A DNA stretch of 64,000 nucleotides from a virus: positions 7,286 through 71,285 of IMG/VR virus record IMGVR_UViG_3300044761_000059; one strand, 5' to 3'. This document shows, piece by piece, positions 861 through 52,205 of this stretch. The notes under the pieces are model-generated. The model was not told the DNA's origin and ran no database searches. It saw only the letters and a list, made by a program, of their open reading frames with translations. Positions within the stretch are counted from its first letter, which is position 1. The number at the start of each line of letters is the position of its first letter. Made by a program: the position numbers and the translations under genes.

Positions 861-3367
861 CCGATGGTGCGGACGAAGGGGGTTTGGGTCCGGTCCCCAG
901 TGGCCCGGCCGAGGGGATCCCGGAAGCGGACGTCGTGATTGCGACCCAGCGGGTCCACCAGTGCGATCCTGATCCCCGTCAGGATCCGAATGATGGTCTC
1001 GAACAGCGTGGCGATCACCGAGTCGACCAGGGAGATCGGCGCCCGGACGATCATCTCCTGGACCTTCCGCACCGCGTCTGCCAGGGGGACGACATCCGCG
1101 ATCAGACGCATTCTGACCGCCGTGGCAGCAGTCGTGTCCATGGTGCTGATCAGGTCCGCGATCGCCCGTAGCCGGAGCGCCTCCTTGCTGATCTCCCCCA
1201 GGAGCTCCACCTGCTCCCGGAGGTGAAGGTGTCGGTCCAGGAGGTAGGTGTCTGCCAGACCCGCCGAGACCCGCACCACCATCTCCTGCTCCCGTCGGTA
1301 GACGTCTGTGAGCAGCAGGGCGTCCTGGACCAGCCGGGTGATCACCTGGGCCGCGCCCTCGCTGATCCGTTCGGCCGTGAAAAGATCCGAGAGGAGGAGC
1401 GCATCCAGGATCTGGCGGCGCCGGTCTGCCGTGACCACGCTGGCGTCGCTGACAAGCACCGTCTCCGCCAACAGGCGCGCCGTATCTACGACCCGACGCT
1501 GGGCATCCGAAAGGAGCAGGGCGTCCTGGAGCCGGGCCTGCCGTTCCGCCTGCTGGAGGGTCTGGTCGGCGAGGAGCAGCCGGTCGAGGATGCTCGCGGC
1601 CCGGTCGGCCTGCTGGCGGGTCTGGTCGCTCACGAGCATGGCGTCCAGGATGGCCCGGACCCGGGCCGCCTCCTGGCGAAGCTGGTCGCTTAGGAGCAGA
1701 GGCTCCCGGAGGTGAAGATGCCGGTCCTGTTGGGGGGCGTCCGCCATTAGAATTCCGTCCTGGACGAGGCGAAAGTGGACGACGGCGGCCTCGGAGACGA
1801 ACGTCGCGGTAAAGAGGTCTTCCAGGAGCAGCCGGTCCGCCACGGGCCGAGGGTAGACCTGGCTTGCCGTGGTGTTGAAGTTGTCGAAGAACGGAGCGCC
1901 CGGGTTGGCCGTGACGTCAAGTGCGACGCCGGCGATGATCTCGAATCGGATGGCGGTGATGTCGAATGTCCTCGCAGCGGTCTTTCGCTGCGTCCAGGTC
2001 ACCCCATCGAGCGACGTCTCGAACCGGAGGGTGTCATCCCCCGTGTCGTGCCGGATCCGCCAATGGTGATGGATCGCGGGATCGAACGCTAAGGTCGTAA
2101 CCGTAAAGGGGTTCCCGCGCTCGAAGGCGATGATCTGGCCCAAGACATAGATGGCTGCGTAAAGGGTGGTGCTCGTCCCCAGGAGGAGCACGGTCTGGAT
2201 CGAGTCGGCGCCTGTTGCGGCGCGGCGGCCTGTCTCCACGACTTCGACGCGCACATGGCTGCCTGTCAGGTTGTAGAGGCCGACGGAACTGTACCCGTTG
2301 AAGCCGATCTCCGTGCCCGAGAGCGTGATCCGCACCTGCTGGTTAGTTTCGGCGACGGCGTGTGCGGGATTGAAGGTCCCCTGGTACCAGATGGTCCCGT
2401 TCTCGTTCCACTTGGCCACGTCCCGGGAGTTGTCGTTGAAGTTGTCGCTGAAACCTTCCGCGGCTGTGAGGGGACTCTTTTGCGTGAAGAGGTCGGAGAG
2501 GAGGAGCGCGTCCTGGATCAGGCGCGCGAAGACGCCCCCGAATATCTTCTCGGCGGTGAAAGCGTCGGAGAGGAGGAGCGCGTCCGCGATGAGCCGAGCG
2601 ACGTCGACGGTCCTCCGTTGGGCGTCCGAGAGGAGAAGCGTGTCCAGGATCTTCCGGGGCCGGTCCGCCAGCTGCCGCGCTTGTTCCGAGAGAAGCAGGG
2701 CGTCCTGGATCAGGCGCGTCACCGTTGCCGCCCCAGCTTCCTTCACCGCGATGGCGACGACGCCAGCCTCGTTGACCGAATTGGTCCAGTTGATGTTTAC
2801 GGTACCGCCGGTCGAATTACTGGTCCGGCGGCACCAATTGCAGGAAGCGTTGCCGAAGTCGTGCTCCAGGATCGTCGTATAGTCGGCTCCGTCGTCTATG
2901 TTGGCAGGGTTGTTCTCGCCGCTGTGCATCGCACCAGCGATGAAACATTCCACGCCAGCCCCCGTGATCAGATCCACATCGGGGGCGCTATCTGAAGCGG
3001 AGTCCAGAGTGGCTGTGTCCTCAACCGCCGTGTCCGCCGCTGCGGTCACGGTGATGGCGACTGCCCGTTTGCTTGTTGCCCCGCTCACGGTCACCAGGAC
3101 CGTCTGGGCCCCGGTGGGAATCCCGGATCCGAGGAAGTAGGCGTAGAGAGACCCGTCCTCCGTCCCATTCACATGGAGAATGGCATCTGCCCGGGTCATC
3201 AAAACCCCGCCATACTCCACGGAAGTGATGTCGTCTGTCGCGCCTCCGGCCTCGTCCTGGACGATGAGAACGATCACGCCTCTGGGTGTTCCGACTGGCG
3301 TATGCGTCCAGGAGAGGTTCCCCGTCCCGGCGGCTACGTTGCTGTCGGCGTCAAAGGCGATCGCCAT
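842..3367 (-). CDS. large virion fibre/whisker-like protein with D(A/T)LLLSD repeats and a ConA/lectin-like domain
   Basis: 841 aa; many ~20-aa-spaced 'DALLLSD' repeats flanking an FSDNFNDNS...beta-sandwich insert. Confidence 0.65.
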   Translation of the reverse strand: MAIAFDADSNVAAGTGNLSWTHTPVGTPRGVIVLIVQDEAGGATDDITSVEYGGVLMTRADAILHVNGTEDGSLYAYFLGSGIPTGAQTVLVTVSGATSKRAVAITVTAAADTAVEDTATLDSASDSAPDVDLITGAGVECFIAGAMHSGENNPANIDDGADYTTILEHDFGNASCNWCRRTSNSTGGTVNINWTNSVNEAGVVAIAVKEAGAATVTRLIQDALLLSEQARQLADRPRKILDTLLLSDAQRRTVDVARLIADALLLSDAFTAEKIFGGVFARLIQDALLLSDLFTQKSPLTAAEGFSDNFNDNSRDVAKWNENGTIWYQGTFNPAHAVAETNQQVRITLSGTEIGFNGYSSVGLYNLTGSHVRVEVVETGRRAATGADSIQTVLLLGTSTTLYAAIYVLGQIIAFERGNPFTVTTLAFDPAIHHHWRIRHDTGDDTLRFETSLDGVTWTQRKTAARTFDITAIRFEIIAGVALDVTANPGAPFFDNFNTTASQVYPRPVADRLLLEDLFTATFVSEAAVVHFRLVQDGILMADAPQQDRHLHLREPLLLSDQLRQEAARVRAILDAMLVSDQTRQQADRAASILDRLLLADQTLQQAERQARLQDALLLSDAQRRVVDTARLLAETVLVSDASVVTADRRRQILDALLLSDLFTAERISEGAAQVITRLVQDALLLTDVYRREQEMVVRVSAGLADTYLLDRHLHLREQVELLGEISKEALRLRAIADLISTMDTTAATAVRMRLIADVVPLADAVRKVQEMIVRAPISLVDSVIATLFETIIRILTGIRIALVDPLGRNHDVRFRDPLGRATGDRTQTPFVRTIGWRNQP

Positions 3368-4249: not shown

Positions 4250-7156
4250 CTACACGTACCGCCCCGTGAAGGGATCCACCAGCGCCCGGGTCTGGCTCTG
4301 GAGGACCTTCTGCCAGTTCTCCACGGACGAGAACCGCGCGCGCATGACCTCCCCCGTATTCGCCGCCCCGCTGGGCCCGGCGCCTGCTGCCCACGCCGCC
4401 TCGAACCCACGGTTCAGGATCCGGAGGGCCTCCGAGTAGTAGTCCAGCCCGTCCCGCGCGTAGAGGGTCATGTCCCCGATGAACTCCTTCTCAAAGAGGG
4501 CCACGGCCTCCTCGCAGTGGGCCAGGACCTCCGCGGTGATCCGGCCCCCGCTCTGCTCCAGCTTGTAGCGGGACAGGTGGATGAGGTCCCGGAGCCAGAG
4601 GAACTTCCCGAGGGTCCGCTCCGGGTAGGCCCGTCGGTCCGCGACCATGAGCCCGATGTTGCGGGCGAACTTCTTCCGCCGGACCTCCTCGACCAGGTAC
4701 CCGTCGTGCGCGATGTCCAGGTCGCTCAGGAGGAGGCAGGGCGTCACGCTGTGGTTGATCGCGGTCTCCGGGTGCTCGTGGATCTTCCCGAAGAAGCGGA
4801 TCCCGAGCCCGTTCCGGAAGACCCGGATCGGCAGATCCGGCTTGAAGGCGTTCGGGGGCACGGCCGAGAAGTGGTGCTGCCGGACGCCGTAGCCGTTGTA
4901 GCAGTTCCGCCGGAGGTACTTCGCCAGGTTGTTGGGGCGGAGGAGCTCCTCGTCCGTGTCCAGCCACAGGATCCAGTCGCAGCCGGCCGCCTGGACAGAG
5001 GTGTTGCGCGGGCCCTCGAAGCCGAAAGGCTCATGGGCGACCTCCGCGAAGTGCTCGGAGGGCATGGCCTTGCCGCAGGGCAGGCACCAGTGGGGCGGCC
5101 GCTCCTCCAGGATCTTCGCGCCGAAGGCCCGGGCGAGCTCGATCGTCCGATCCGTAGACCCCTGATCCACCACGATAATCTCGTCGGCCAGTTCCCGGAC
5201 GCTCTGGAGCGCCCGGATGAAGAGGGCCTCCGAGTTGAAGGTGATGAAGCAGGCCGAGAGGGTCTGCCGCTTCAGGGACGGCTTCGCCGCGGGGAGCGCC
5301 GGCGTCCAGGCGTGGAGGGCCTCCAACCATTCGGGCCGCCAGTGCCGGCGGTGGATCTCCGCCCAGGAGAGGGCCGCCTCGGGGTCGGCGAGCATGGCCT
5401 CGCGCTGGGCGTGCTGGCCCTCCTCGTCCAGGAGGGTGGCGGTCAGGCAGTCGACGTAGACCGCGTGGTCCCCGGCCCGCACGCCGTGGCGGACGGTGTC
5501 CCGGAGGGCCATGGTCGGGACGACGACCGGGATCGCCCCGAGGCGCTGCGCCTTCACGGCCACCAGGCAGAAGCGCTCCCCCCCGGTGCAGGGGTACGCC
5601 CAGACGGCCGCCTCGAGGTAGGGCGTGGGGTCGTCCGGGAGGCCCCCCGGCCGCAGCGTGATCCCGGGCTGGGCGAGCCGCTGGAGGAGGTCCCCCTTCC
5701 ACCGGGCCGCCTCGAGGTTCCCCGCGGTGATCTGGTCGAAGAGCCACCAGTCGTGCCAGACGTGCAGCTCGGCGTCCGGGACCCGCTCCCGGATCTCCGC
5801 CCAGTGGTCCAGGAGGAAGGCCAGGCCGCGGTCCGGGGAGCTCGCGTAGACCATCCGGTGCGGCGGCCGCCAGGGGTCCCGCGTGGCCGCCAGGATCCCG
5901 TCCGGGACGCCGAAGGGGACCGTGGCCACCTTCTCCTCCTGCAACCCGGGGTTGAGTTTCCTCAACTCGTGGTTGTGCCAGGGGGAGATGGCCATGATCC
6001 GGTGGATCCGCTCGAGGCGGGTCGGCGTGAGGTCCTCGGGGCCGTTCGGGTCGGCCGTCCAGTAGAGCACCCGCCGGGCCGCGATCGGGCGGTCCAGGGC
6101 CTGGGGCCACTTGACCACCACCACGACGTCCCGGGGCTCGTCCGGCCGGAAGGCCGCGTGGGGGAGGTACCGGACCGGGCCGGGGGGGGCCGGGGCCCCC
6201 TCGGGGGGGTTGTGGAAGACCTCGACCTCATGCCCGGCCCCGGCCAGGGTCCGGGCCAGCTCAATGACTCCCTCCTCGCTCCCCCGGAAGGTCCGGGGAT
6301 CCTCGGGGGTCCAGCCGGTCCCGACCGGGTTCACGACGAAGGCCGTCCGGGGGCGCCGGTAGCACAGGACCCGCTCCCGGTGGGCGCCGGCGTCCAGGAT
6401 CTCGTGGCCGTCCACCGCCCGCTCCCCCAGGAGACCCAGGACGTCCTCCTCGGCCAGACAGCGGAGGTGCTCCCGGGCCTCATGGGCGTTCCCCTCATGG
6501 GGCACCGGGCTGGCTGGGGTGGTCAGGTAGACGCGGCCGCCTGGCGCCAGGTGGCGCTCGGCCGCGGCCAGCGCGGCACTGGGATCCAGGACGTGCTCCA
6601 GAACTTCCATCAGGAGCACCGCGTCAAAGACCTCCCCGATCCCGAAGTCCTCCAGGAGGCTCGACACGAAGGCCGCCTGGATCCCCAGGGTCTCCGCGCT
6701 CCTGGCGGCGTGGGCCATGGCCTCCCGGTCCACGTCCACGCCCATGCCGGTGGCCCCGAAGGCGTGGCAGAGGTTCAGGAGGGCGAACCCGTCGAAGCAG
6801 CCCAGGTCCAGGATCCGGGCCGGGGGCTTGGCCGCCATCCAGGTCCGGATCCTGGCCAGCCGCGGGATCTGCTCGTGCCGCCGGGGGATCGCCTCGGCGG
6901 GGAGGTGGACCCGGCGGTGACCCTGGTAGAAGGCTCTGTAGGCCTCCGGGCTGGCGGTGTGGGCCAGCCAGTCCTCCAGCTCCAGCTCCAGGCCCTCCAG
7001 GCCGGGGAGGGAGGGTTCCGTGGCCCTGAGCCCCGCCAGGGCCGTCCTGGCGGCCAGTGGCTGGTCGGCCCAAAGGAGGGCCCGGATCTCGGCAAGCCTG
7101 GGATCCTGGAGGGTCTCGGGGAGGTAGGAGTGAACCAGCGTGTGTGGATCAGGCAT
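4250..7156 (-). CDS. three-domain fusion: class I SAM methyltransferase + GT4 glycosyltransferase + GT2 glycosyltransferase
   Basis: ILDLGCFDG and EVLEHV (MTase); GSEEGV, YASSPDRGL, ERFCLVAVKAQ (GT-B/GT4); IIVVDQGSTDRT, WILWLDTDE, GKIHE (GT-A/GT2). Confidence 0.9.
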   Translation of the reverse strand: MPDPHTLVHSYLPETLQDPRLAEIRALLWADQPLAARTALAGLRATEPSLPGLEGLELELEDWLAHTASPEAYRAFYQGHRRVHLPAEAIPRRHEQIPRLARIRTWMAAKPPARILDLGCFDGFALLNLCHAFGATGMGVDVDREAMAHAARSAETLGIQAAFVSSLLEDFGIGEVFDAVLLMEVLEHVLDPSAALAAAERHLAPGGRVYLTTPASPVPHEGNAHEAREHLRCLAEEDVLGLLGERAVDGHEILDAGAHRERVLCYRRPRTAFVVNPVGTGWTPEDPRTFRGSEEGVIELARTLAGAGHEVEVFHNPPEGAPAPPGPVRYLPHAAFRPDEPRDVVVVVKWPQALDRPIAARRVLYWTADPNGPEDLTPTRLERIHRIMAISPWHNHELRKLNPGLQEEKVATVPFGVPDGILAATRDPWRPPHRMVYASSPDRGLAFLLDHWAEIRERVPDAELHVWHDWWLFDQITAGNLEAARWKGDLLQRLAQPGITLRPGGLPDDPTPYLEAAVWAYPCTGGERFCLVAVKAQRLGAIPVVVPTMALRDTVRHGVRAGDHAVYVDCLTATLLDEEGQHAQREAMLADPEAALSWAEIHRRHWRPEWLEALHAWTPALPAAKPSLKRQTLSACFITFNSEALFIRALQSVRELADEIIVVDQGSTDRTIELARAFGAKILEERPPHWCLPCGKAMPSEHFAEVAHEPFGFEGPRNTSVQAAGCDWILWLDTDEELLRPNNLAKYLRRNCYNGYGVRQHHFSAVPPNAFKPDLPIRVFRNGLGIRFFGKIHEHPETAINHSVTPCLLLSDLDIAHDGYLVEEVRRKKFARNIGLMVADRRAYPERTLGKFLWLRDLIHLSRYKLEQSGGRITAEVLAHCEEAVALFEKEFIGDMTLYARDGLDYYSEALRILNRGFEAAWAAGAGPSGAANTGEVMRARFSSVENWQKVLQSQTRALVDPFTGRYV

Positions 7157-8363
7157 GCGCCAGCGCCTCCTCCTTGACCAGGCCCCCCACCAGGGCCTCC
7201 CATTCCGCCGCCACCCCATCCCAGTCCAGGGCCTTGGCGGCTTCCATGCCGGCCCGGGACGCCGCCGCCCAGGCCTCCGGGTCCCGGAGCAGGCGCAGGC
7301 AGGCTCGCACGAAGACCTCCTGGTAGTACGGGCTCCGGGCGCCCTTCTGCGGATCGAAGAGCTCCATCCCTGGCATCCGCCAGGAGCCGTCCGCCTGGGC
7401 CACGGCGCCGCCCACGCCGAGCTCCTTGAGCGCCTTCCCGGGCTCAGACGGGTGGCCGACCAGGACGCCGGCCCCGGGGGAGACGGTCTCCGTCAGGGCC
7501 GCCAGGTCCGAGGCGACAATCGGGAGGCCGACCGCCATGCACTCCATCGCCGTGATGCAGCTGATCTCCTCGAAGTCCGTCGGGTAGATGTAGAGGGCGG
7601 CGGTCTTGTAGAGCTTGTAGAGGTCCTGCTTGCTCAACGGCCCCAGGTGCCGCACCCGGCCGGCGAAACGGTCGATCAGGCGCTGGCACTTGTCGTAGAG
7701 GGGCCGGAGGAAGTCCGGGTAGTTGGCGTAGCCCGCGAGGTACAGGCGCAGTTCCGGGTCCTCCCGCAGGAGCCGCGGGAAGGTGTCCTCGAGCAGGATG
7801 TCCATCCCCCGCTCGGGGCGCGCGGTGAAGACCAGCGCCTTCATGTCCCGGGTGCCCTCCGGCGGCCCGGGCGCCGCCTCGAGCATCCGGAGGTCGATCC
7901 CGTTCCGGGTCACGTGGAGGGCGCTGTCCGGCAAGCCGTAGACGTTCTGGTACTGGCGCTTCATGAACTGAGAGAGGACCATGACCCGGTCACACGCCCA
8001 GAGGATCCCCCGCATGGGGTCGGCCGTGCGCTTCAGTGCCAGGTCGTGGACCCAGAGGAGCCGGACCGGGGCGGCGATCGGGAGGGTCAGCGGATGGGGG
8101 ACGCGCTGGACGACCGCGACGTCGTGGGTGACATTGGTGGTCCACTCGATGTAGTGCTGGATCCCGTGGTACCGGACCCCGTCGTAGGCGGCCTCCTTGT
8201 CCGTCCGGCAGAAGAGGTGGACCTCGTGGCCCCGGGCGACCAGCGCCCGAGCCAGGTGGAGCCCAGCGGTCTCGGATCCGCCGAGGGACTTCAGCTCGGG
8301 GGCGGCGCCGTCGAAACTCATGCCATCTACGAAAAATGTCCAGCGTAGGCGCTCAGGGTTCAC
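7149..8363 (-). CDS. GT4-family glycosyltransferase
   Basis: LGGSETA, VTRNGID, RPERGMD, YPTDFEEISCITAMECMAVGLP; GTG start overlaps upstream stop (GTGA). Confidence 0.9.
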   Translation of the reverse strand: MNPERLRWTFFVDGMSFDGAAPELKSLGGSETAGLHLARALVARGHEVHLFCRTDKEAAYDGVRYHGIQHYIEWTTNVTHDVAVVQRVPHPLTLPIAAPVRLLWVHDLALKRTADPMRGILWACDRVMVLSQFMKRQYQNVYGLPDSALHVTRNGIDLRMLEAAPGPPEGTRDMKALVFTARPERGMDILLEDTFPRLLREDPELRLYLAGYANYPDFLRPLYDKCQRLIDRFAGRVRHLGPLSKQDLYKLYKTAALYIYPTDFEEISCITAMECMAVGLPIVASDLAALTETVSPGAGVLVGHPSEPGKALKELGVGGAVAQADGSWRMPGMELFDPQKGARSPYYQEVFVRACLRLLRDPEAWAAASRAGMEAAKALDWDGVAAEWEALVGGLVKEEALAHA

Positions 8364-37411: not shown

Positions 37412-37953
37412 TGTTCCTCCTCCCCGGCGCGGGGGGAGAGGGCGGCCCGGACAATCGCAAGTGATTTTCGGGCCTCGATGCGGTCGCTCTCTTTCTCCGC
37501 GTCAGTTAGCATGGCGTAGGGTGTTGCTGCCTTCCGCGGCCAGTCTGCGGCCTTCTCAGCCGGAGCACGGCTCTGGTACTCCATCCACCTGGCCCATCGC
37601 TCGTGTTCTGCCGCTGCTAACGCCTCCAAAAGTTTTGGCGAGTCCAGTGCCTCCCGCAGCGCCGCGTTCTGCGCTTTCAACTCGTCTCGTTCTGCAAGCA
37701 GGGCGCGGCCAGCAGATGAAATATTGAACAAACTCCACCGCCTGATGGCCGCTTCCGTCATTGCTTCCACTTCTTTTCTGCTGAGAGCCGTAGAGCGCCC
37801 TGGAATCAGAAGAGCCGCGCATTCGACTAGAGCCCCATAAACCCCGCGCATCAGTTCTCCGCACGCCGCGTTCTGCGCTTCGAGGGAGGCGAGGGCGGTC
37901 TCCGTTTCTTGCGCTTGTCCTTCCATTTGCTCAATTAAGACATCGGGCATCAT
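37408..37953 (-). CDS. hypothetical protein with a C-terminal RyR-repeat-like motif
   Basis: LAAAEHERW...PYAMLTDAEKESDR; locally lower GC. Confidence 0.55.
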   Translation of the reverse strand: MMPDVLIEQMEGQAQETETALASLEAQNAACGELMRGVYGALVECAALLIPGRSTALSRKEVEAMTEAAIRRWSLFNISSAGRALLAERDELKAQNAALREALDSPKLLEALAAAEHERWARWMEYQSRAPAEKAADWPRKAATPYAMLTDAEKESDRIEARKSLAIVRAALSPRAGEEEQ

Positions 37954-46376: not shown

Positions 46377-46582
46377 CGGCCCTCCTCGTCCAGGAGCTCC
46401 TCCACCGTCATGGCGTTGTAGCTGAGGATCTCCTCCGCCGTCTCCCCGGTCTCCGCGCCCCACTGTTCGCGCGGGGCGAGCCGGGTGCCGTTCCAGTTGT
46501 AGTCGGCCCCGCAGGTGGGGCAGGTGTTGGTGAACTCGTTACAGTCGAGGTCCTGGCCGCAGCACTGGATGGTCTTGGCCAT
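46373..46582 (-). CDS. small Zn-ribbon protein
   Basis: CPTCGADYN..G.RLAPREQWG.ETGE. Confidence 0.6.
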   Translation of the reverse strand: MAKTIQCCGQDLDCNEFTNTCPTCGADYNWNGTRLAPREQWGAETGETAEEILSYNAMTVEELLDEEGR

Positions 46583-46586
46583 GGGG

Positions 46587-47129
46587 TCACCGCCTCTCCC
46601 CGCGGGCGACCGCTTCGCGCAGCGGCTTCAGCCAGGCCGCGTCAGGCCGGTAGTCGGTCGGCAGGGATTCCAGGTACCCGAGGGCGCCACCGGCCACGGC
46701 GAGCAGCTGTCCGGTCACCGGCTCCGGGATCGGGACCGGCTTCCAGGGGCAGGGCTCGTCGCCGTAGTGGCGGTAAATCCTGGCCCGGTGTTCGGGCCAG
46801 ACCGCCTCGTACTCGGTCCCGCCGACCTCGCCATGGACATCCGCGCCGTCCGCGTAGCAACGGCCCTCGAAGACCTTCTGGGCCTGGTTGATGCTCGGCC
46901 ACACGCGCTTGTCGTCGTTCAGGTGGGCGTGCTCGGTCACGCCCTGAAGGTCCACCACCTGGCCGGGCGCGTACTTCTTCCAGCACGGTGAGCAGGCGAC
47001 TCCCTTCAGGAGGCCGCCGCAGTCAAACCGGAACTCGGCGTCGTACCGCCGGCCTTCGCGGCCGGTGCAGATGTCGCACTCAGCGTGGAACTGGTAGCCC
47101 GGGCCGATCGTGACGATAGTCGCTTTCAT
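46587..47129 (-). CDS. hypothetical protein
   Basis: CDIC...CSPC; GGAGGG RBS. Confidence 0.5.
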   Translation of the reverse strand: MKATIVTIGPGYQFHAECDICTGREGRRYDAEFRFDCGGLLKGVACSPCWKKYAPGQVVDLQGVTEHAHLNDDKRVWPSINQAQKVFEGRCYADGADVHGEVGGTEYEAVWPEHRARIYRHYGDEPCPWKPVPIPEPVTGQLLAVAGGALGYLESLPTDYRPDAAWLKPLREAVARGERR

Positions 47130-47303
47130 GCTCCCTCCCTTTTGTAGGCCGGTCCACGGGGGTACAGCCGCATCAGGATCTTGGCGTGGGTCTCGCATCG
47201 GTACTGTCCCTTGGCCTCGTACAGGGGCCCCCCGCACGGCGCGATCCGGAGGAGGATCCCATCTGGGGCACACTTCTGGGCCATCGGTCACCTCCTTTGT
47301 TTT

Positions 47304-47382
47304 CGCCCTGCCGTCATCAGGCCCCGGGAGGGCGCCCCGGGACGACCGGGCGGGGGCGCGGGCCCCCCGCCGGGGTTTCGGC
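47304..47382 (-). ncRNA. type II hammerhead ribozyme
   Basis: GCC-GAAA-stem III-GUC-stem I-CUGAUGA-C-GGC; loop I CGCCCU complementary to 3' tail AGGGCG (pseudoknot). Confidence 0.85.
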
Positions 47383-47383
47383 T

Positions 47384-48127
47384 CTAGTTGGCGCTCGCCC
47401 GCAGCCCGAACAGGCGCCCGAGCTCCGTGGTCGCCTCGAAGGCCGGCGCCGGCGCCAAGGCCTTGATCGCCCGGGTGAACGCGTTATGCAGGGCGTACTT
47501 GGTCCGGGGCTGGCAGTCCACCATCTCCGGCGTGGGGCTGAAGTAGTTCCGGTGGACGTCGTCGAAGAGCCGGACCGGCACGATCCCCTCGGCAAAGGCG
47601 TCATACGCGAGCTCCTTCGCCTCGAGGGTGGCCAGCTCCTGCTCCTGGAGCAGGCCGATGCCGTCGACCAGGGCCTTGACATGGATCAGGTACCGCTCGA
47701 GCCCGCCGTCGATCTCCGCCCGCAGGTTCAGGCCCGAGGTGTGCTTCCGGCGGAGGGCGATCAGGTCGCCGCTCAGGACCAGGTTGTCGCACACGAACAC
47801 CCGCTGGCCCGCCACCACGGTGATGGCGAACTGCTGGGCGTTCGACGCCCGGAGCCCCATGGCGACCCCGTGCCCCGGCAGCGTCAGGCCGCCGCCATTC
47901 TCGAAGTCCATGGTCCCGAACAGGAGCGCGCCGCCGTGCTGGACGCCGTACTCCTCCCGGGTCAGCCGGAGCCCGGCGGTCTCGGCACGCCGGGCGATGG
48001 TCTCCACCAGCTCAATGTGAGGCACCGGCCGGTGGATCGGGCCCAGGACCGCCGGGGCCGGCAGCTGGGCCAGTTCGGCGCGGGTCATCCGGACCGCGCC
48101 GCGGTGCAGGACGAGCTTGCTGTCCAT
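47384..48127 (-). CDS. DUF932-family protein
   Basis: HRPVPH.ELV, GLRASN, RVFVCDNL..SGD, RRKHTSG, LHNAFT. Confidence 0.75.
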   Translation of the reverse strand: MDSKLVLHRGAVRMTRAELAQLPAPAVLGPIHRPVPHIELVETIARRAETAGLRLTREEYGVQHGGALLFGTMDFENGGGLTLPGHGVAMGLRASNAQQFAITVVAGQRVFVCDNLVLSGDLIALRRKHTSGLNLRAEIDGGLERYLIHVKALVDGIGLLQEQELATLEAKELAYDAFAEGIVPVRLFDDVHRNYFSPTPEMVDCQPRTKYALHNAFTRAIKALAPAPAFEATTELGRLFGLRASAN

Positions 48128-48147
48128 CGCTCCTCCTCCTCCGCCGC

Positions 48148-48522
48148 CTAGGCGGCTCCCGTCTTTGGGGTGAAGATGCGGCCGAGGCTCACCGTCGCCT
48201 GGGGGAACAATTCGGCGACGCGATCCATCGCCCGCTGGTCCCGGCCCCCGATGTGCCAGTCCCGGATCCCCTCGGTCGCCGGGGCCGTAGGCCCGAGGTA
48301 CTTCCGCCCGGTCTTGTAGTTGTAGATGGTCGCCACCGTCGGTTCCGGGAACTCCGCGGTCCCCCCCGGGAACTCGAGGATCCACTCGGCGTCGACCTTG
48401 TAGCCGTCGCCCTTCAGGGGCTCGCCGAGCGTGGCCACGAGGTCGGCGTAGCCGATGTCCAGGTAGGCCAGGAAGCCGGTCCCCGTGGCCCGCGCGGGTT
48501 CCTGCAGCACCTTGAACTCCAT
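48148..48522 (-). CDS. hypothetical early protein
   Basis: Y..LV..LGEP..GDGYKVDAEW...ATIYNYK...WHIGG. Confidence 0.65.
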   Translation of the reverse strand: MEFKVLQEPARATGTGFLAYLDIGYADLVATLGEPLKGDGYKVDAEWILEFPGGTAEFPEPTVATIYNYKTGRKYLGPTAPATEGIRDWHIGGRDQRAMDRVAELFPQATVSLGRIFTPKTGAA

Positions 48523-48537
48523 GGGTCTCCTCCTTGT

Positions 48538-48598
48538 GCCCCGCCTTGCCACGGGGCTTGGGGTTTACGCCCCGGGGATCCCCGGGGTGGCTCGCCTT
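48538..48598 (-). ncRNA. twister-like ribozyme (circularly permuted, P5-type), copy A
   Basis: GGCGA-GCCA-[CCCCGGG/CCCGGGG]-UAAACCCC-[GCCCCG UGGC AA GG CGGGGC]; UGGC:GCCA and GG:CC pseudoknots. Confidence 0.75.
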
Positions 48599-48839
48599 AG
48601 TCGTCCTCGGGCTCATCCGCCCCGTCAGCCTCCTGGGACTGGACGATGGTCACCTGGAACTCGGCCCCGTTCTGGAGCCGGACCACCAGGCCGCGGTTGT
48701 TGGTCAGAACCCCGGCGTCCTCGAAGGTGCTGATCCCGGCGTCGCTCAGTTCTTCGCCCGCGATCCGATCCTGGCTGGACGATGCCGCGACCGCCTCCAG
48801 GACCTCCTGCAGGGTCCGTTCGAACTTGCGCTCGTTCAT
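48597..48839 (-). CDS. hypothetical early protein
   Basis: TFEDAGVLTNNRGLVVR...EFQVTIVQS. Confidence 0.65.
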   Translation of the reverse strand: MNERKFERTLQEVLEAVAASSSQDRIAGEELSDAGISTFEDAGVLTNNRGLVVRLQNGAEFQVTIVQSQEADGADEPEDD

Positions 48840-48849
48840 CGTTCCCTCC

Positions 48850-49239
48850 CTACCCGACCTGGGTCAGCCGGCCGCAGGCCGGGTGGTACCAGCCGTGGCG
48901 CCGACGCTGCTCGAGGCTCGGCTGGAGCCGCTGCGCGACCAGGGTGCGAAGCCCCGTGAAGTCGAAGTACCGCTGCTTGACGTCCGGGGCGCCCTTCGGG
49001 ATCTGGCAGCCGCACCACTTGTCGTCGACGTACTGGTAGGAATCGTCGAACCTGGCGAAGGTCCCGAACAGGGCATCGCACGCTAGGCAATTGTGCAGCT
49101 GGTCGCCTGGGCTCCAGGCGCCCAGCCGGGAATGAATCGCTTTCACCCGGTAGCTGCTGCACGCCGGGCACTTCGGCCGGAGATCCTCGTCCACGTAGGT
49201 CAGGTGGACCGCCGCGACGGCCATGCTTCTCGTGCTCAT
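48850..49239 (-). CDS. Zn-ribbon hypothetical protein
   Basis: CPAC...CLAC...YFDF...RRHGW. Confidence 0.55.
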   Translation of the reverse strand: MSTRSMAVAAVHLTYVDEDLRPKCPACSSYRVKAIHSRLGAWSPGDQLHNCLACDALFGTFARFDDSYQYVDDKWCGCQIPKGAPDVKQRYFDFTGLRTLVAQRLQPSLEQRRRHGWYHPACGRLTQVG

Positions 49240-49517
49240 GACTCGGCCTCCTTGATCGCCGCCCGCAGGGCCGGCTCATAGACGTCCCCGCGCCAGGAGT
49301 TTTCGCCGAAGGCAACGGTGGCTTCCTGGCCGAGGCCAGCCAGCTTGTTCACCGACAGGACCGCCACTTGGCCGGCCTGCTGGAAGACGATCCCGAGCAT
49401 CACGCCCGGGCACTCCGCCGGATCCGCGAACCGCACCGCGTAGAAGGGCGCGCCGCCGACGCCGTTCCGGTGGTGCGCCACCTCGTAGATTCTGAGGTCG
49501 CGTAGCATCTTGGCCAT
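49236..49517 (-). CDS. hypothetical early protein
   Basis: HHRNGVGG.PFYAV.F...NSWRGD. Confidence 0.6.
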   Translation of the reverse strand: MAKMLRDLRIYEVAHHRNGVGGAPFYAVRFADPAECPGVMLGIVFQQAGQVAVLSVNKLAGLGQEATVAFGENSWRGDVYEPALRAAIKEAES

Positions 49518-49529
49518 GGGTCTCCTCCT

Positions 49530-49790
49530 TTATGCCGGTATCGGCAGGTGTGCGAGCAGGTGTACGTGCTTTCCGTGCCGCTGGGCTTCGGCCTCGCTCC
49601 GGAGGAGTTCCTCGAAGCGGCGTGGGCCGATCCACATCCGGTCGAAGGTTTTGTTGACCGGGTTGTACCACTCGATCTCGACGACGCCGCGCACCGTGTC
49701 CTGGCCGGCCACCTTGAACTCGCTGTCGGCGACGATCTTGACCACCTTGTGCCAGCCGGCGATCGCCAGCCGGGCTTCGCTCTTGAGCAT
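49530..49790 (-). CDS. hypothetical early protein
   Basis: AAGGAG RBS. Confidence 0.5.
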   Translation of the reverse strand: MLKSEARLAIAGWHKVVKIVADSEFKVAGQDTVRGVVEIEWYNPVNKTFDRMWIGPRRFEELLRSEAEAQRHGKHVHLLAHLPIPA

Positions 49791-49801
49791 GCCGTTCTCC
49801 T

Positions 49802-50023
49802 TTAGCGGGTGAAGCCCCCGCGGTAGCGCCCGTTCACCACCACCTCGTACTGGGCGCCCTTGGGAATGTTGGTTGTCGCCATCGAGGTGGCCACGCGCAG
49901 GGTCCCGCAGTGGCTCGAGCCGAACCCGCCGCCCTGGGGGTTTCGCGTGAAGAAGTGCCAGGTCGCCCGGTGCTTCTCGAGGGTGACCACCCATCCATCC
50001 GTCTTGTAGACCACCGTGCCCAT
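49802..50023 (-). CDS. hypothetical early protein
   Basis: GGAGGAGG RBS directly after ribozyme copy B. Confidence 0.55.
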   Translation of the reverse strand: MGTVVYKTDGWVVTLEKHRATWHFFTRNPQGGGFGSSHCGTLRVATSMATTNIPKGAQYEVVVNGRYRGGFTR

Positions 50024-50037
50024 CGTTCCTCCTCCGT

Positions 50038-50099
50038 GGGCCGCCTTGCCACGGCCCGTGGGGTTTACCGGGCCCCCCGTCGGGGCCCGTGGCTCGCCT
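50038..50099 (-). ncRNA. twister-like ribozyme, copy B
   Basis: GGCGA-GCCA-[CGGGCCCC/GGGGCCCG]-G-UAAACCCC-[GGGCCG UGGC AA GG CGGCCC]; stems covary relative to copy A. Confidence 0.75.
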
Positions 50100-50187
50100 A
50101 GAAGCTCCGCTTGACCGCGTTCTGCAGCTTCAGCCGGGCGATTGTCCGCCCCGGGAACTGCATCAGCGTTCCGTATGTGAGGCTCAT
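50098..50187 (-). CDS. 29-aa peptide MSLTYGTLMQFPGRTIARLKLQNAVKRSF
   Basis: AAGGAGG RBS, ATG...TAG, between two ribozymes; too short for the supplied ORF track. Confidence 0.55.
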   Translation of the reverse strand: MSLTYGTLMQFPGRTIARLKLQNAVKRSF

Positions 50188-50203
50188 CGGATCCTCCTTC
50201 TCG

Positions 50204-50262
50204 GCTGGCCTTGCCACCAGCGGCGGGGTTTAAGGGAGGCTCGCGCCCCCCCGGCTCACCTT
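50204..50262 (-). ncRNA. twister-like ribozyme, copy C
   Basis: GGUGA-GCCG-[GGGGGGC GCGA GCCUCCC]-U-UAAACCCC-[GCUGG UGGC AA GG CCAGC]. Confidence 0.75.
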
Positions 50263-50532
50263 GTGTGTTGCGTTACCGGCCTGTCGGCCGGGGCCCTCGT
50301 AGGCTCCCCCGTCCCCCGGGCCGTTCCCCCCCGGGCCTCTCCCCTGGCGGGGCGGTACCGGGCTTCGCGGCGCGGGCTCTGGAGGGCCGGGCGCGTTAGG
50401 GATTCGCGGGTGCCAGGCTCCCTTCGGCCTCTCTTATGTGCGCTCCCCGGGGGCTCTCTTTCGCCGTCTTCCCCGGATCCGCTTGTTGGTGGCATCCCCC
50501 CTTCCGGTGTTACTTGTGTGTCTCTAGTTGCA

Positions 50533-50560
50533 AGTATAACGCCTGTTACGCCGTTGTCAA
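50533..50560 (-). promoter_or_regulatory. near-consensus sigma70 early promoter
   Basis: TTGACA-N16-TATACT in an AT-richer intergenic island. Confidence 0.8.
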
Positions 50561-50730
50561 CGGAAAAAGCGCCATCGGCAAGCAGTTTAGTCGGGGTGTT
50601 TATGCGGACTTACGGGGGTGGCCGGCGGGAGGCGCCCCGGGGGGGGCTGGGTGGCCCCCCTGGCGGGGCGGGCTGGGGGCTTCTGCCACGGGGTAGGTAG
50701 CCGGGTTCCTCAAGCCTGGGCGTCTCCGGC

Positions 50731-51024
50731 TCAGAGGCGCCTTGCCAGGAACGAGAGCAGGTGCGTCCTGGGGTTGTCCTCCAGGGCCATCGCCGGGTCC
50801 GCCTGCTCGGCGCGGGCCGGGCAGGCGTCCGGGCCCCACAGGGGATCGAAGTTGAACGGCCACCGGAACCATCGGCCGGTCTTTCGGTTATTCAGGGCAG
50901 CCTCCAGGCCGCCGGCGAGGAGGGCGTCGATCTTGGCCGGGTCCAGGTCCCAGCGGTAGGCGCAGCGGAGATGGCTGTCTCCCGGGATCTCCCGCCGGTA
51001 CCCGCAGCCGCGACAGGGGAGCAT
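50731..51024 (-). CDS. hypothetical protein
   Basis: C..C.YRREIPGDSH..C...WF.WPFNFDP.W...C. Confidence 0.6.
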   Translation of the reverse strand: MLPCRGCGYRREIPGDSHLRCAYRWDLDPAKIDALLAGGLEAALNNRKTGRWFRWPFNFDPLWGPDACPARAEQADPAMALEDNPRTHLLSFLARRL

Positions 51025-52205
51025 CAGAGGATCCTCCCCTGGGCCGGCGGGGGCTCGCCCTGGGCCGGCGGCTTCGCCCGGGCCGCGATGGCGTCCAGGC
51101 GGTCCTTGAAGGCCTGAGCGAGCCGCTTCCGGACGGGCTCCGGCTTGGTCTCGATCGTCGGGTACTGCCGGTCCCACAGCATGTCGACGCCGCCGCCCGT
51201 GACCGCCTTGCCGAGCTCCTCGAGTAGGCCGAGCTCCCACTTGGTGGCCGGGTAGTGGGCCTGGGCCGGCTGCGGTGGGGCTGGTGCTTGGGGCGCCTGG
51301 GCCGGCACTGCGGGCTGGGGGATGGCGGTCGCGGCCGCGGCCTTGGCCGCCTCGGGCGAGTCCTCCTCCACCAGCACGGCGCCCGGCGTGTCGTCCGGCC
51401 CGTCGTCCACCGCCGCCGGCAGGGCGAGGCGCTCGGTCGGGGCGAAGAGGGCCTGGGCGCTCCCCTGGAGCTTGATCATGTCCTCGAGCGTGTAGGGCAG
51501 CCGCGGCTTCAGCAGCCAGTGGACGCTTTTCTTGCCCTCGTACTCGATCTCCTCCGGCTCCCGGGTGAGCACGAACGGGATCAGGACCACCCGGTTGAAC
51601 GGGGGCGTGGAGGCCTTCAGCCAGTCCACGATGCTATTCATGGCGACGATGTTGTTCCAGCTCCCGGTCGTGATCTGGTAGACGCCGCCCATGCTGATCT
51701 TCGGCAGGATGACGAACAGGACGCCCTGGGCCCGGCAGACGCCCTCGTCCACCAAGGGACAGCCGGGGCCCTTCTCCGGATCCCGGCAGCCGATCTCCAC
51801 GAGCGCGTTGTGGTCGGCCTCCTTGGGGATCTCCTGGAGGAGCCGCGCGTTGGCGTCGTCCAGGATCTTGCCGTCCTTCTTCCGGATCCACACCAGGTCG
51901 GCCGCCCGGCGCATGGCCCGCTCCCCGTCCCCGCGGCAGCGGAGGCCCTGCTGCACGTAGGCCTTGTACTGCTGGGTGAAGAACCGGGTCTCGTCGGCGG
52001 GCGGGAACATGACGTCCAGGGACTTCGGCTTCTCCCCGTACTTCTCCTGGACCTCGGGCGGGCAGACGAAGTAGTCGACCTCCTTCGGGTACTCGACCGG
52101 GCCCGTGGGGGTCTGCTTCACCATCTTGATCCCGAGCCGGATCTTCCCGAGGCGGGGCAGCCGGCGGATCTCCGAGAGGCCCTTGATGCGGGGCTGGACG
52201 GGCAT
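51024..52205 (-). CDS. Gp3-like / recombination directionality factor-like protein
   Basis: IKGLSE.RRLPRLGKIRLG...PKEVDYF...CRGDG...GVYQITTGS. Confidence 0.7.
   Translation of the reverse strand: MPVQPRIKGLSEIRRLPRLGKIRLGIKMVKQTPTGPVEYPKEVDYFVCPPEVQEKYGEKPKSLDVMFPPADETRFFTQQYKAYVQQGLRCRGDGERAMRRAADLVWIRKKDGKILDDANARLLQEIPKEADHNALVEIGCRDPEKGPGCPLVDEGVCRAQGVLFVILPKISMGGVYQITTGSWNNIVAMNSIVDWLKASTPPFNRVVLIPFVLTREPEEIEYEGKKSVHWLLKPRLPYTLEDMIKLQGSAQALFAPTERLALPAAVDDGPDDTPGAVLVEEDSPEAAKAAAATAIPQPAVPAQAPQAPAPPQPAQAHYPATKWELGLLEELGKAVTGGGVDMLWDRQYPTIETKPEPVRKRLAQAFKDRLDAIAARAKPPAQGEPPPAQGRIL

Follow-up and report, generated by a model that had tools for sequence, protein, structure and literature searches.

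The twister class of self-cleaving ribozymes was reportedly described by Roth et al. in 2014, and one of its forms, the type-P5 twister (Rfam family RF02684, clan CL00120), runs in the order of one P2 strand, GAG.., a closed P1, U/AA, the other P2 strand, the T2 letters, P4 with its loop L4 and an open end (here and below, the slash between two nucleotides marks the cut). Self-cleaving RNAs have been placed between phage genes before. In passages of PMC3088659, Perreault et al. (2011) describe clustered hammerheads flanking prophage genes, propose that the ribozymes divide long RNAs into messages of gene length, and report that ~2-kb constructs with clustered hammerheads cleaved in vitro. Section 13 of the review PMC6765202 suggests that bacterial twister and hammerhead ribozymes, which occur near phage genes, may process polycistronic transcripts into pieces of differing stability and translation; the same review calls the purpose of the ribozymes undefined, and in reviews the biological role of bacterial and phage twisters is still called speculative. 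Here we describe three intergenic elements in a 64,000-nucleotide (nt) window, the whole stretch of DNA that was analysed, which covers positions 7,286 to 71,285 of the 71-kb IMG/VR virus record IMGVR_UViG_3300044761_000059 (estimated to be 87% complete). In all probability these are type-P5-permuted twister ribozymes, predicted to cut one long message into pieces.

The processing of phage polycistronic RNA by ribozymes is, in the passages cited above, already in print, and type-P5 twister arrays in phages are a known kind. What is new is an unannotated instance of a type in which both pseudoknots are flipped and which lies mostly below the Rfam cut-off. A text search of the literature returned no description of pseudoknot-flipped type-P5 twisters, which may sit in the original Roth et al. 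2014 alignments.

The genes of the operon region lie on the minus strand, and the three elements, which share a common plan, lie on the same strand. In the RNA sense each copy reads AGG(C/U)GAGCC(A/G), a GC-rich hairpin, UAAACCCC, a stem enclosing UGGCAAGG, AAGGAGG and AUG. The detailed plan is GGY, GAGCC, an optional A, the GC-rich hairpin P1, an optional CG, UAA, ACC, CC, a linker of 3-4 nt and P4, a stem of 5-6 base pairs (bp) closing the loop UGGCAAGG (L4), with AAGGAGG following 4-10 nt later and then ATG. P2, L1 and P1 (7-8 bp) together with P4/L4 stand in the P5-permuted order in all three copies, and the sequences of P1 and P4 vary among the copies while their pairing is kept. Copies 1 and 2 start at or overlap the stop codon of the preceding gene, and all three are followed by a Shine-Dalgarno sequence and an ATG. 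An initial annotation of this DNA had drawn three intergenic AGGYGAGCCR-hairpin copies with stems that differ but still pair, each in front of a ribosome-binding site (RBS); this picture holds on the minus strand over the spans given in Table 1, and the cuts it predicted fall, in each copy, at the U/A of UAA.

We compared the copies with the published anatomy of the twister. As described in passages of PMC5408937 and PMC11662667, a twister needs an N/A-A cleavage loop (A1 acts as general acid, and A2 is indispensable), a G immediately 3' of P2 as general base with the A of the A.A pair behind it, and, in L4/P4, a U...A pair and a closing G-C pair. It also needs two pseudoknots, T1 with three Watson-Crick pairs between L1 and L4, and T2 with two pairs between L4 and the dinucleotide after P2. 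All these catalytic and structural nucleotides are present in each of the three copies. The cleavage-site U-A-A and the G-A-G directly after GGY occur in 3/3 copies and are invariant in an alignment of 38 sequences. The L4 letters U..CAAG. with their closing G-C, as G-UGGCAAGG-C, are also found in 3/3 copies, and the loop columns are invariant both in that alignment and in one made without the window's copies, in which P1 sits in two registers.

Apart from P2, the copies depart from the family consensus only in their pseudoknots, and they do so in a paired manner. Where the Rfam consensus reads GAGgG, GC and UCcCAAGC, the copies read GAGCC, CC and UGGCAAGG; that is, GAGgG is replaced by GAGCC together with UCcC by UGGC, and GC by CC together with AAGC by AAGG. 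Two T1 pairs and one T2 pair are flipped from G-C to C-G with both partners changed. In the copies, GCC of L1 pairs with GGC of L4, plus the A.A pair, to give T1, and CC pairs with GG to give T2. The contacts first written as UGGC:GCCR and GG:CC are genuine T1 and T2 contacts with compensatory flips, except that the loop U lies outside T1. The copies are type-P5 elements with no P5 stem, a three-pair P2 and three pseudoknot pairs flipped from G-C to C-G. According to passages of PMC5113685, the rice twister stays active when a single T1 or T2 pair is exchanged for a different Watson-Crick pair.

The motif is also statistically unusual in the window. GAGCC-N(14-40)-TAAACCCC occurs 4 times against 0.04 expected, a count reached in 0/100 shuffles, and three of the four matches are the three copies. 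The fourth match, at 37812-37845 on the plus strand, has no exact GTGGCAAGG nearby and fails the structural descriptor scan; it is therefore taken as chance. Exact GTGGCAAGG occurs in the window at the three copies only, while the 9-mer by itself, with one mismatch allowed, shows no enrichment there (21 found versus 18.25 expected). When the window was scanned in full with a structural descriptor that fixed no pseudoknot letter, these three elements alone were returned. In addition, an Rfam scan of 6 kb by E-value gave five matches at E ≤ 10, three of which are to Twister-P5 (RF02684), exactly at the copies and over the full length of the model (positions 1-58). The minimum-energy fold of copy 1 is the twister secondary structure, and across the copies minimum-energy or centroid folds reproduce it. 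DNA contigs from four sequencing runs carry one substitution outside the ribozymes and zero variation inside them, so that no population-level covariation can be read from them.

Further evidence for the fold comes from relatives in other contigs. We searched viral contigs with six patterns that share one geometry and vary in nothing but their pseudoknot letters, and passed all matches through one structure filter (P1 ≥ 5 bp, P4 ≥ 4 bp, P2 ≥ 2/3). Structured elements made up 70 of the 80 distinct matches with canonical letters, 20 of 30 with T1 flipped, and 12 of 19 with both pseudoknots flipped, the window's type. The three non-complementary combinations gave 0/4, 0/4 and 0/5. Overall, 102/129 matches with complementary combinations were structured compared with 0/13 with non-complementary ones, the latter being divided into 0/8 for a broken T1 and 0/5 for a broken T2. 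One of the "broken" matches, L371, is a genuine twister in another register, with T2 alone flipped.

Applied to all loci collected, a descriptor that leaves the pseudoknot letters open yielded 224 distinct structured elements; 65 of them are of the window's pseudoknot type, and 72 carry pseudoknot combinations outside the searched patterns. Because the latter combinations had never been searched for, the 72 elements were not selected on their pseudoknot letters. Both variable T1 pairs are complementary in 70/72 of them, and T2 is complementary in 72/72 (62/72 if only the register with a 3-bp P2 is allowed). Since the pseudoknot letters covary naturally in this way, they provide an independent check of the twister fold. 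In the 38-sequence alignment, 95.7% of the P2/T1/T2/P4 cells are paired versus 68.2% in shuffles, and 0/500 shuffles reach the observed value; T1 is 100% paired with three pair types (CG/GC/UA) at two positions, and T2 is 93.4% paired. With the catalytic letters present and the pseudoknots covarying in relatives, the twister-like identity first proposed for the three elements is supported.

The wider family shares other traits of the copies. The nucleotide preceding the cut is U in 223/224 elements, an SD-like (Shine-Dalgarno-like) tetramer follows P4 in 200/224, and in 154/224 the first base of a stop codon lies 0-6 nt upstream of P2, the most frequent arrangement (67 elements) being one in which the G of UAG also belongs to P2. 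Type-P5 twister arrays between phage genes are present in other viral contigs, with up to 14 copies per locus (14 in L453). The closest relatives, L276 and L293, share 75-89% identity with the window in this region, and each has four flipped-type copies; L293 contains five twister copies in 2.3 kb. The use of pseudoknot letters differs among arrays. In the viral contigs L384, L398 and L420, five to seven twisters each have their own pseudoknot combination (seven copies with seven combinations in L384), and in L454 and L459 a single combination is used throughout.

Loose pattern scans gave at least 367 matches, of which 78 pass the structure filter, corresponding to at least 68 unique cores; judged by this filter, most loose-pattern matches are chance, L001, L002 and L004 among them. 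Among the matches listed, structured elements account for 64/130 in metagenome contigs and 7/117 in viral contigs, with 5 in the window's own record. In the genome contigs (~185,000 species genomes), the only structured elements among the matches listed are L144 and L202 (2/115). Given 2/115 in genome contigs and 64/130 in metagenome contigs among these listed matches, the pseudoknot-flipped type seems to occur mostly in unbinned DNA that is probably viral.

Covariance-model scores form a continuum over these relatives. In other viral contigs, canonical copies built in the same way reach 41-64 bits and exceed the Rfam cut-off, which for RF02684 is a gathering score of 37.6 bits. Window-type copies range from not being listed to 40.3 bits, and 1 exceeds the cut-off among the 18 flipped-type copies scored (3 from the window, 4 from L276, 4 from L293 and 7 from independent contigs). 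Copies above the cut-off are found in both closest relatives (40.3 bits in L276, 45.2 bits in L293). Because only 1/18 of the scored flipped-type copies passes, standard annotation under-counts twisters, and a whole flipped-pseudoknot type of phage twisters lies under the Rfam cut-off.

Several results weigh against the identification as twister ribozymes. An Rfam scan of the whole 64-kb window at the gathering threshold gave no match, and an E-value scan of the whole window gave no twister even at E ≤ 5. The sites matched in the 6-kb scan are missed here because, with long inputs, the speed filters let ribozymes below the threshold go unseen; with short inputs these filters are laxer. The initial annotation had pointed to covariance models as a check; full-length Twister-P5 matches lie exactly at the three sites, and all three score below the gathering cut-off (Table 1). 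The low scores arise because the model is blind to pseudoknots and scores the six flipped letters as errors, that is, as mismatches to conserved single-stranded positions. A family search in the own genome listed 2 of the 3 copies, copy 3 among them with the same match, and its control gave weak matches at E ≤ 10 in 13/14 ordinary genomes, so that a weak covariance-model match carries little weight by itself. P2 has three positions (GGY/ACC) compared with four in the consensus, with an innermost C.A in copies 1 and 2, and a change of P2 length might disturb the active site according to section 11 of the review PMC5408937. Phage copies with scores of up to 64 bits also have a three-pair P2; it is therefore a trait of the phage subgroup and not a disqualifier. 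The fold energies are not significantly better than those of shuffles (z of -0.9, -1.6 and -0.8 for the three copies), so that fold stability alone is no evidence. The relatives were gathered with patterns taken from the window, and the stem covariation is partly circular because the stems were part of the filter; the evidence that escapes this circularity is confined to the failure of the broken combinations and to the pseudoknot letters in the 72 elements that were not selected on them. Finally, the literature searched held no cleavage evidence for pseudoknot-flipped elements.

Some of these points would also be expected if the elements were decayed twister relics that fold and no longer cut, and that act as intercistronic hairpins stalling exonucleases or spacing ribosomes. 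The scores below the Rfam cut-off fit such a decay, as do, in copies 1 and 2, the C.A mismatch beside the active site and the additional A and CG that stay unpaired at P1; the adjacent hammerhead candidate, which seems to be decaying in L276, fits it as well. However, every catalytic nucleotide is intact in the three copies, and the apparent defects recur in the family, where P2 mismatches and the extra A or CG are found repeatedly (GGC/ACC in 8/224 and GGU/CCC in 38/224 elements). According to section 32 of PMC11662667, twisters tolerate imperfect P1 and P2 stems as well as insertions where L1 begins at its base. The complementarity of the pseudoknots, which is relevant to the active fold only, has been kept as well. 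We therefore regard decay to a merely structural role as unlikely. The repeats could also serve mainly as boundaries at which phages exchange cassettes by recombination, with any RNA activity being secondary. This reading draws on L276 (80-89% identical), which has a different gene between two twisters plus one extra twister, and on the five copies in L293. Nevertheless, the copies share only ~25 scattered invariant letters and their stems differ, which makes them a poor substrate for recombination, and recombination sites need neither compensated pseudoknots nor a fixed strand nor a position between stop codon and RBS; a primary role of this kind is very improbable.

It is highly improbable that the twister likeness is a matter of chance and that the elements are an unrelated leader or processing motif read by a protein, such as a host ribonuclease (RNase) or a phage factor. 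The frequency of weak covariance-model matches in the ordinary genomes of the control leaves room for chance likeness. Against it stand full-length model matches at three sites, exact catalytic letters, compensated T1 and T2, and the continuum to the above-cut-off copies in L276 and L293, and the hairpins are of only 7-8 bp with no U-tract terminator on this strand. In line with the last point, the minus strand of the operon region has no terminator-like site and no U-tract terminator, which rules out a reading of the hairpins as terminators.

Taking the elements as twister ribozymes, we can propose how they would act in the operon (Table 1). The strong promoter placed upstream in the initial annotation is present; it is a sigma-70-type TTGACA-16-TATACT site that matches 11 of the 12 consensus letters, and it is the only promoter-like site in 46500-51500 (shuffle mean 0.2). 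Its position puts copy 3 in a ~330-nt leader. One long early RNA would start there, and each element would fold as it emerges, into P2/L1/P1 plus P4/L4, and L4 would dock both on L1, by T1 (GGC:GCC with A.A), and on the CC that follows P2, by T2 (GG:CC). Self-cleavage between U and A would come next. Copy 3 would detach a leader of ~290 nt, the pair of copies 3 and 2 would release a 165-nt monocistronic message for a 29-residue peptide (A50231-U50067), copies 2 and 1 would release a 1.5-kb five-gene message (A50066-U48567), and a downstream message would follow. The 3' end of each upstream piece would be formed by the GC-rich hairpin P1 and carry a 2',3'-cyclic phosphate, and the downstream pieces would start with 5'-OH-AAACCCC, followed by the P4 hairpin and, 4-10 nt later, the RBS. 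Hairpin/cyclic-phosphate ends and 5'-OH ends slow exonucleases and 5'-end-dependent RNases in bacterial mRNA decay, and the pieces predicted here may be protected in the same way, with effects on their stability and translation. In this operon a single strong promoter is followed by three predicted twisters whose fragments have predictable sizes, which would make it a compact test case from nature.

Table 1. Coordinates of the predicted ribozymes and of the surrounding features of the operon (positions are those of the window; strand - is the RNA-sense strand of the operon).
Feature	Coordinates	Strand	Layout or context	Scores and pairing
Predicted twister, copy 3	50204..50260	-	In 5' leader; GGU, GAGCC, P1 50252-50233, U50232/A50231 A, ACC, CC, P4, loop UGGCAAGG 50216-50209	RF02684 33.7 bits, E 2.8e-4, model positions 1-58; P1 8 bp, P4 5 bp, P2 3/3
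Predicted twister, copy 2	50038..50098	-	GGC, GAGCC, A + P1, U50067/A50066 A, ACC, CC, P4, loop 50051-50044	RF02684 26.2 bits, E 0.024, model positions 1-58; P1 8 bp, P4 6 bp; innermost P2 pair C.A
Predicted twister, copy 1	48538..48596	-	GGC, GAGCC, A + P1, CG U48567/A48566 A, ACC, CC, P4, loop 48551-48544	RF02684 24.4 bits, E 0.067, model positions 1-58; P1 7 bp, P4 6 bp
Sigma-70-type promoter	50533..50560	-	TTGACA-16-TATACT	11/12 consensus letters
GC-rich leader, ~290 nt	50233..50526	-	Upstream of copy 3 cut; putative transcription start	
29-codon gene (MSLTYGTLMQFPGRTIARLKLQNAVKRSF)	50098..50187	-	Between copies 3 and 2; its UAG stop runs into the first G of copy 2	
Five small genes (73, 86, 93, 129, 80 codons)	48597..50023	-	Reading frames; no ribozyme between them	
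Candidate type II hammerhead (doubtful)	47302..47383	-	Between stop codon and RBS	RF02276

The leader and the 29-codon gene are shared with L276. The leader is far closer to that of L276 than the neighbouring genes are to theirs, with a handful of differing positions in 240 bases compared with 80-89% identity elsewhere, and the likeness is high over its first 150 bases. Of 7 substitutions, 3/3/1 fall at the three codon positions of a 79-codon reading frame (50495-50256), and a 2-base indel breaks this frame; with no third-position bias and a broken frame, a coding reading is unlikely and the leader is probably non-coding. The 29-residue frame has a homolog in L276 (2542-2631) with four substitutions. 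Searches with the ten operon proteins gave no Pfam or PHROG match. At 2631-3017, L276 has another gene (~81 codons) between two twisters, and the corresponding place in the window (50098-49791) is occupied by the 73-codon gene and a single twister. Since a different twister-flanked gene stands in L276 at the place of this gene, gene cassettes appear to be exchanged at the ribozyme boundaries.

A bolder reading, which we consider doubtful, is that copy 3 frees the conserved non-coding ~290-nt leader to act on its own as a decoy or early regulator, that the pair of twisters sets the dosage of the 29-codon message, and that the pseudoknot letters are interchangeable codes. If so, the 29-codon message would be very short, end-protected and dosed apart from the rest of the operon, and the leader would be capped by a hairpin at its 3' end. 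Pseudoknot codes that vary between neighbours might then prevent adjacent ribozymes from docking on each other (compare L384).

The initial annotation had counted four self-cleaving RNAs by adding a hammerhead to the three twister-like elements. While the three twisters stand, the hammerhead is weak. Its core CUGAUGA, GAAA and GUC before the cut are present and stems I and III are good; stem II has 3 bp plus an extra C. The candidate scores 18.8 bits versus a gathering score of 37 for RF02276, and its hammerhead fold (-41.2 kcal/mol) lies 10 kcal/mol above the minimum (-51.3 kcal/mol). In L276 (~5580-5665, 89% identical), CUGAACGA stands where the window has the core CUGAUGAC, and the flanks are nearly identical. 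It is possible that the sequence at 47383-47302 is a real ribozyme.

The closest known system is the type-P5 twister of RF02684, with which the window's elements share the order of parts from the first P2 strand to the open end, the catalytic and loop letters, and both pseudoknots. They differ from it in T1, which is GCC:GGC as opposed to GGG:CCC, in T2, which is CC:GG as opposed to GC:GC, and in their scores of 24-34 bits. In their predicted effect they recall phage T7, in which RNase III cuts the early mRNA between cistrons and leaves hairpin-ended messages. The T7 process depends on a protein and on long duplexes, whereas the window's hairpins have 7-8 bp and a ribozyme core is present. RiboJ is an engineered ribozyme insulator. 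In such insulators and in polycistronic expression assisted by ribozymes (PMC9872166), the ribozyme likewise sits directly before the RBS, separates cistrons and gives defined 5' ends; those constructs are synthetic, while the window holds a natural phage operon. The proposal in PMC6765202, as worded in its section 13, also concerns polycistronic processing near phage genes, and our operon would be a case of it. Like the prophage hammerhead clusters in the passages of PMC3088659, it has several predicted ribozymes between genes on one phage transcript. They belong to another class, and here they lie at the head of a promoter-proximal operon, where the first ribozyme would remove the leader.

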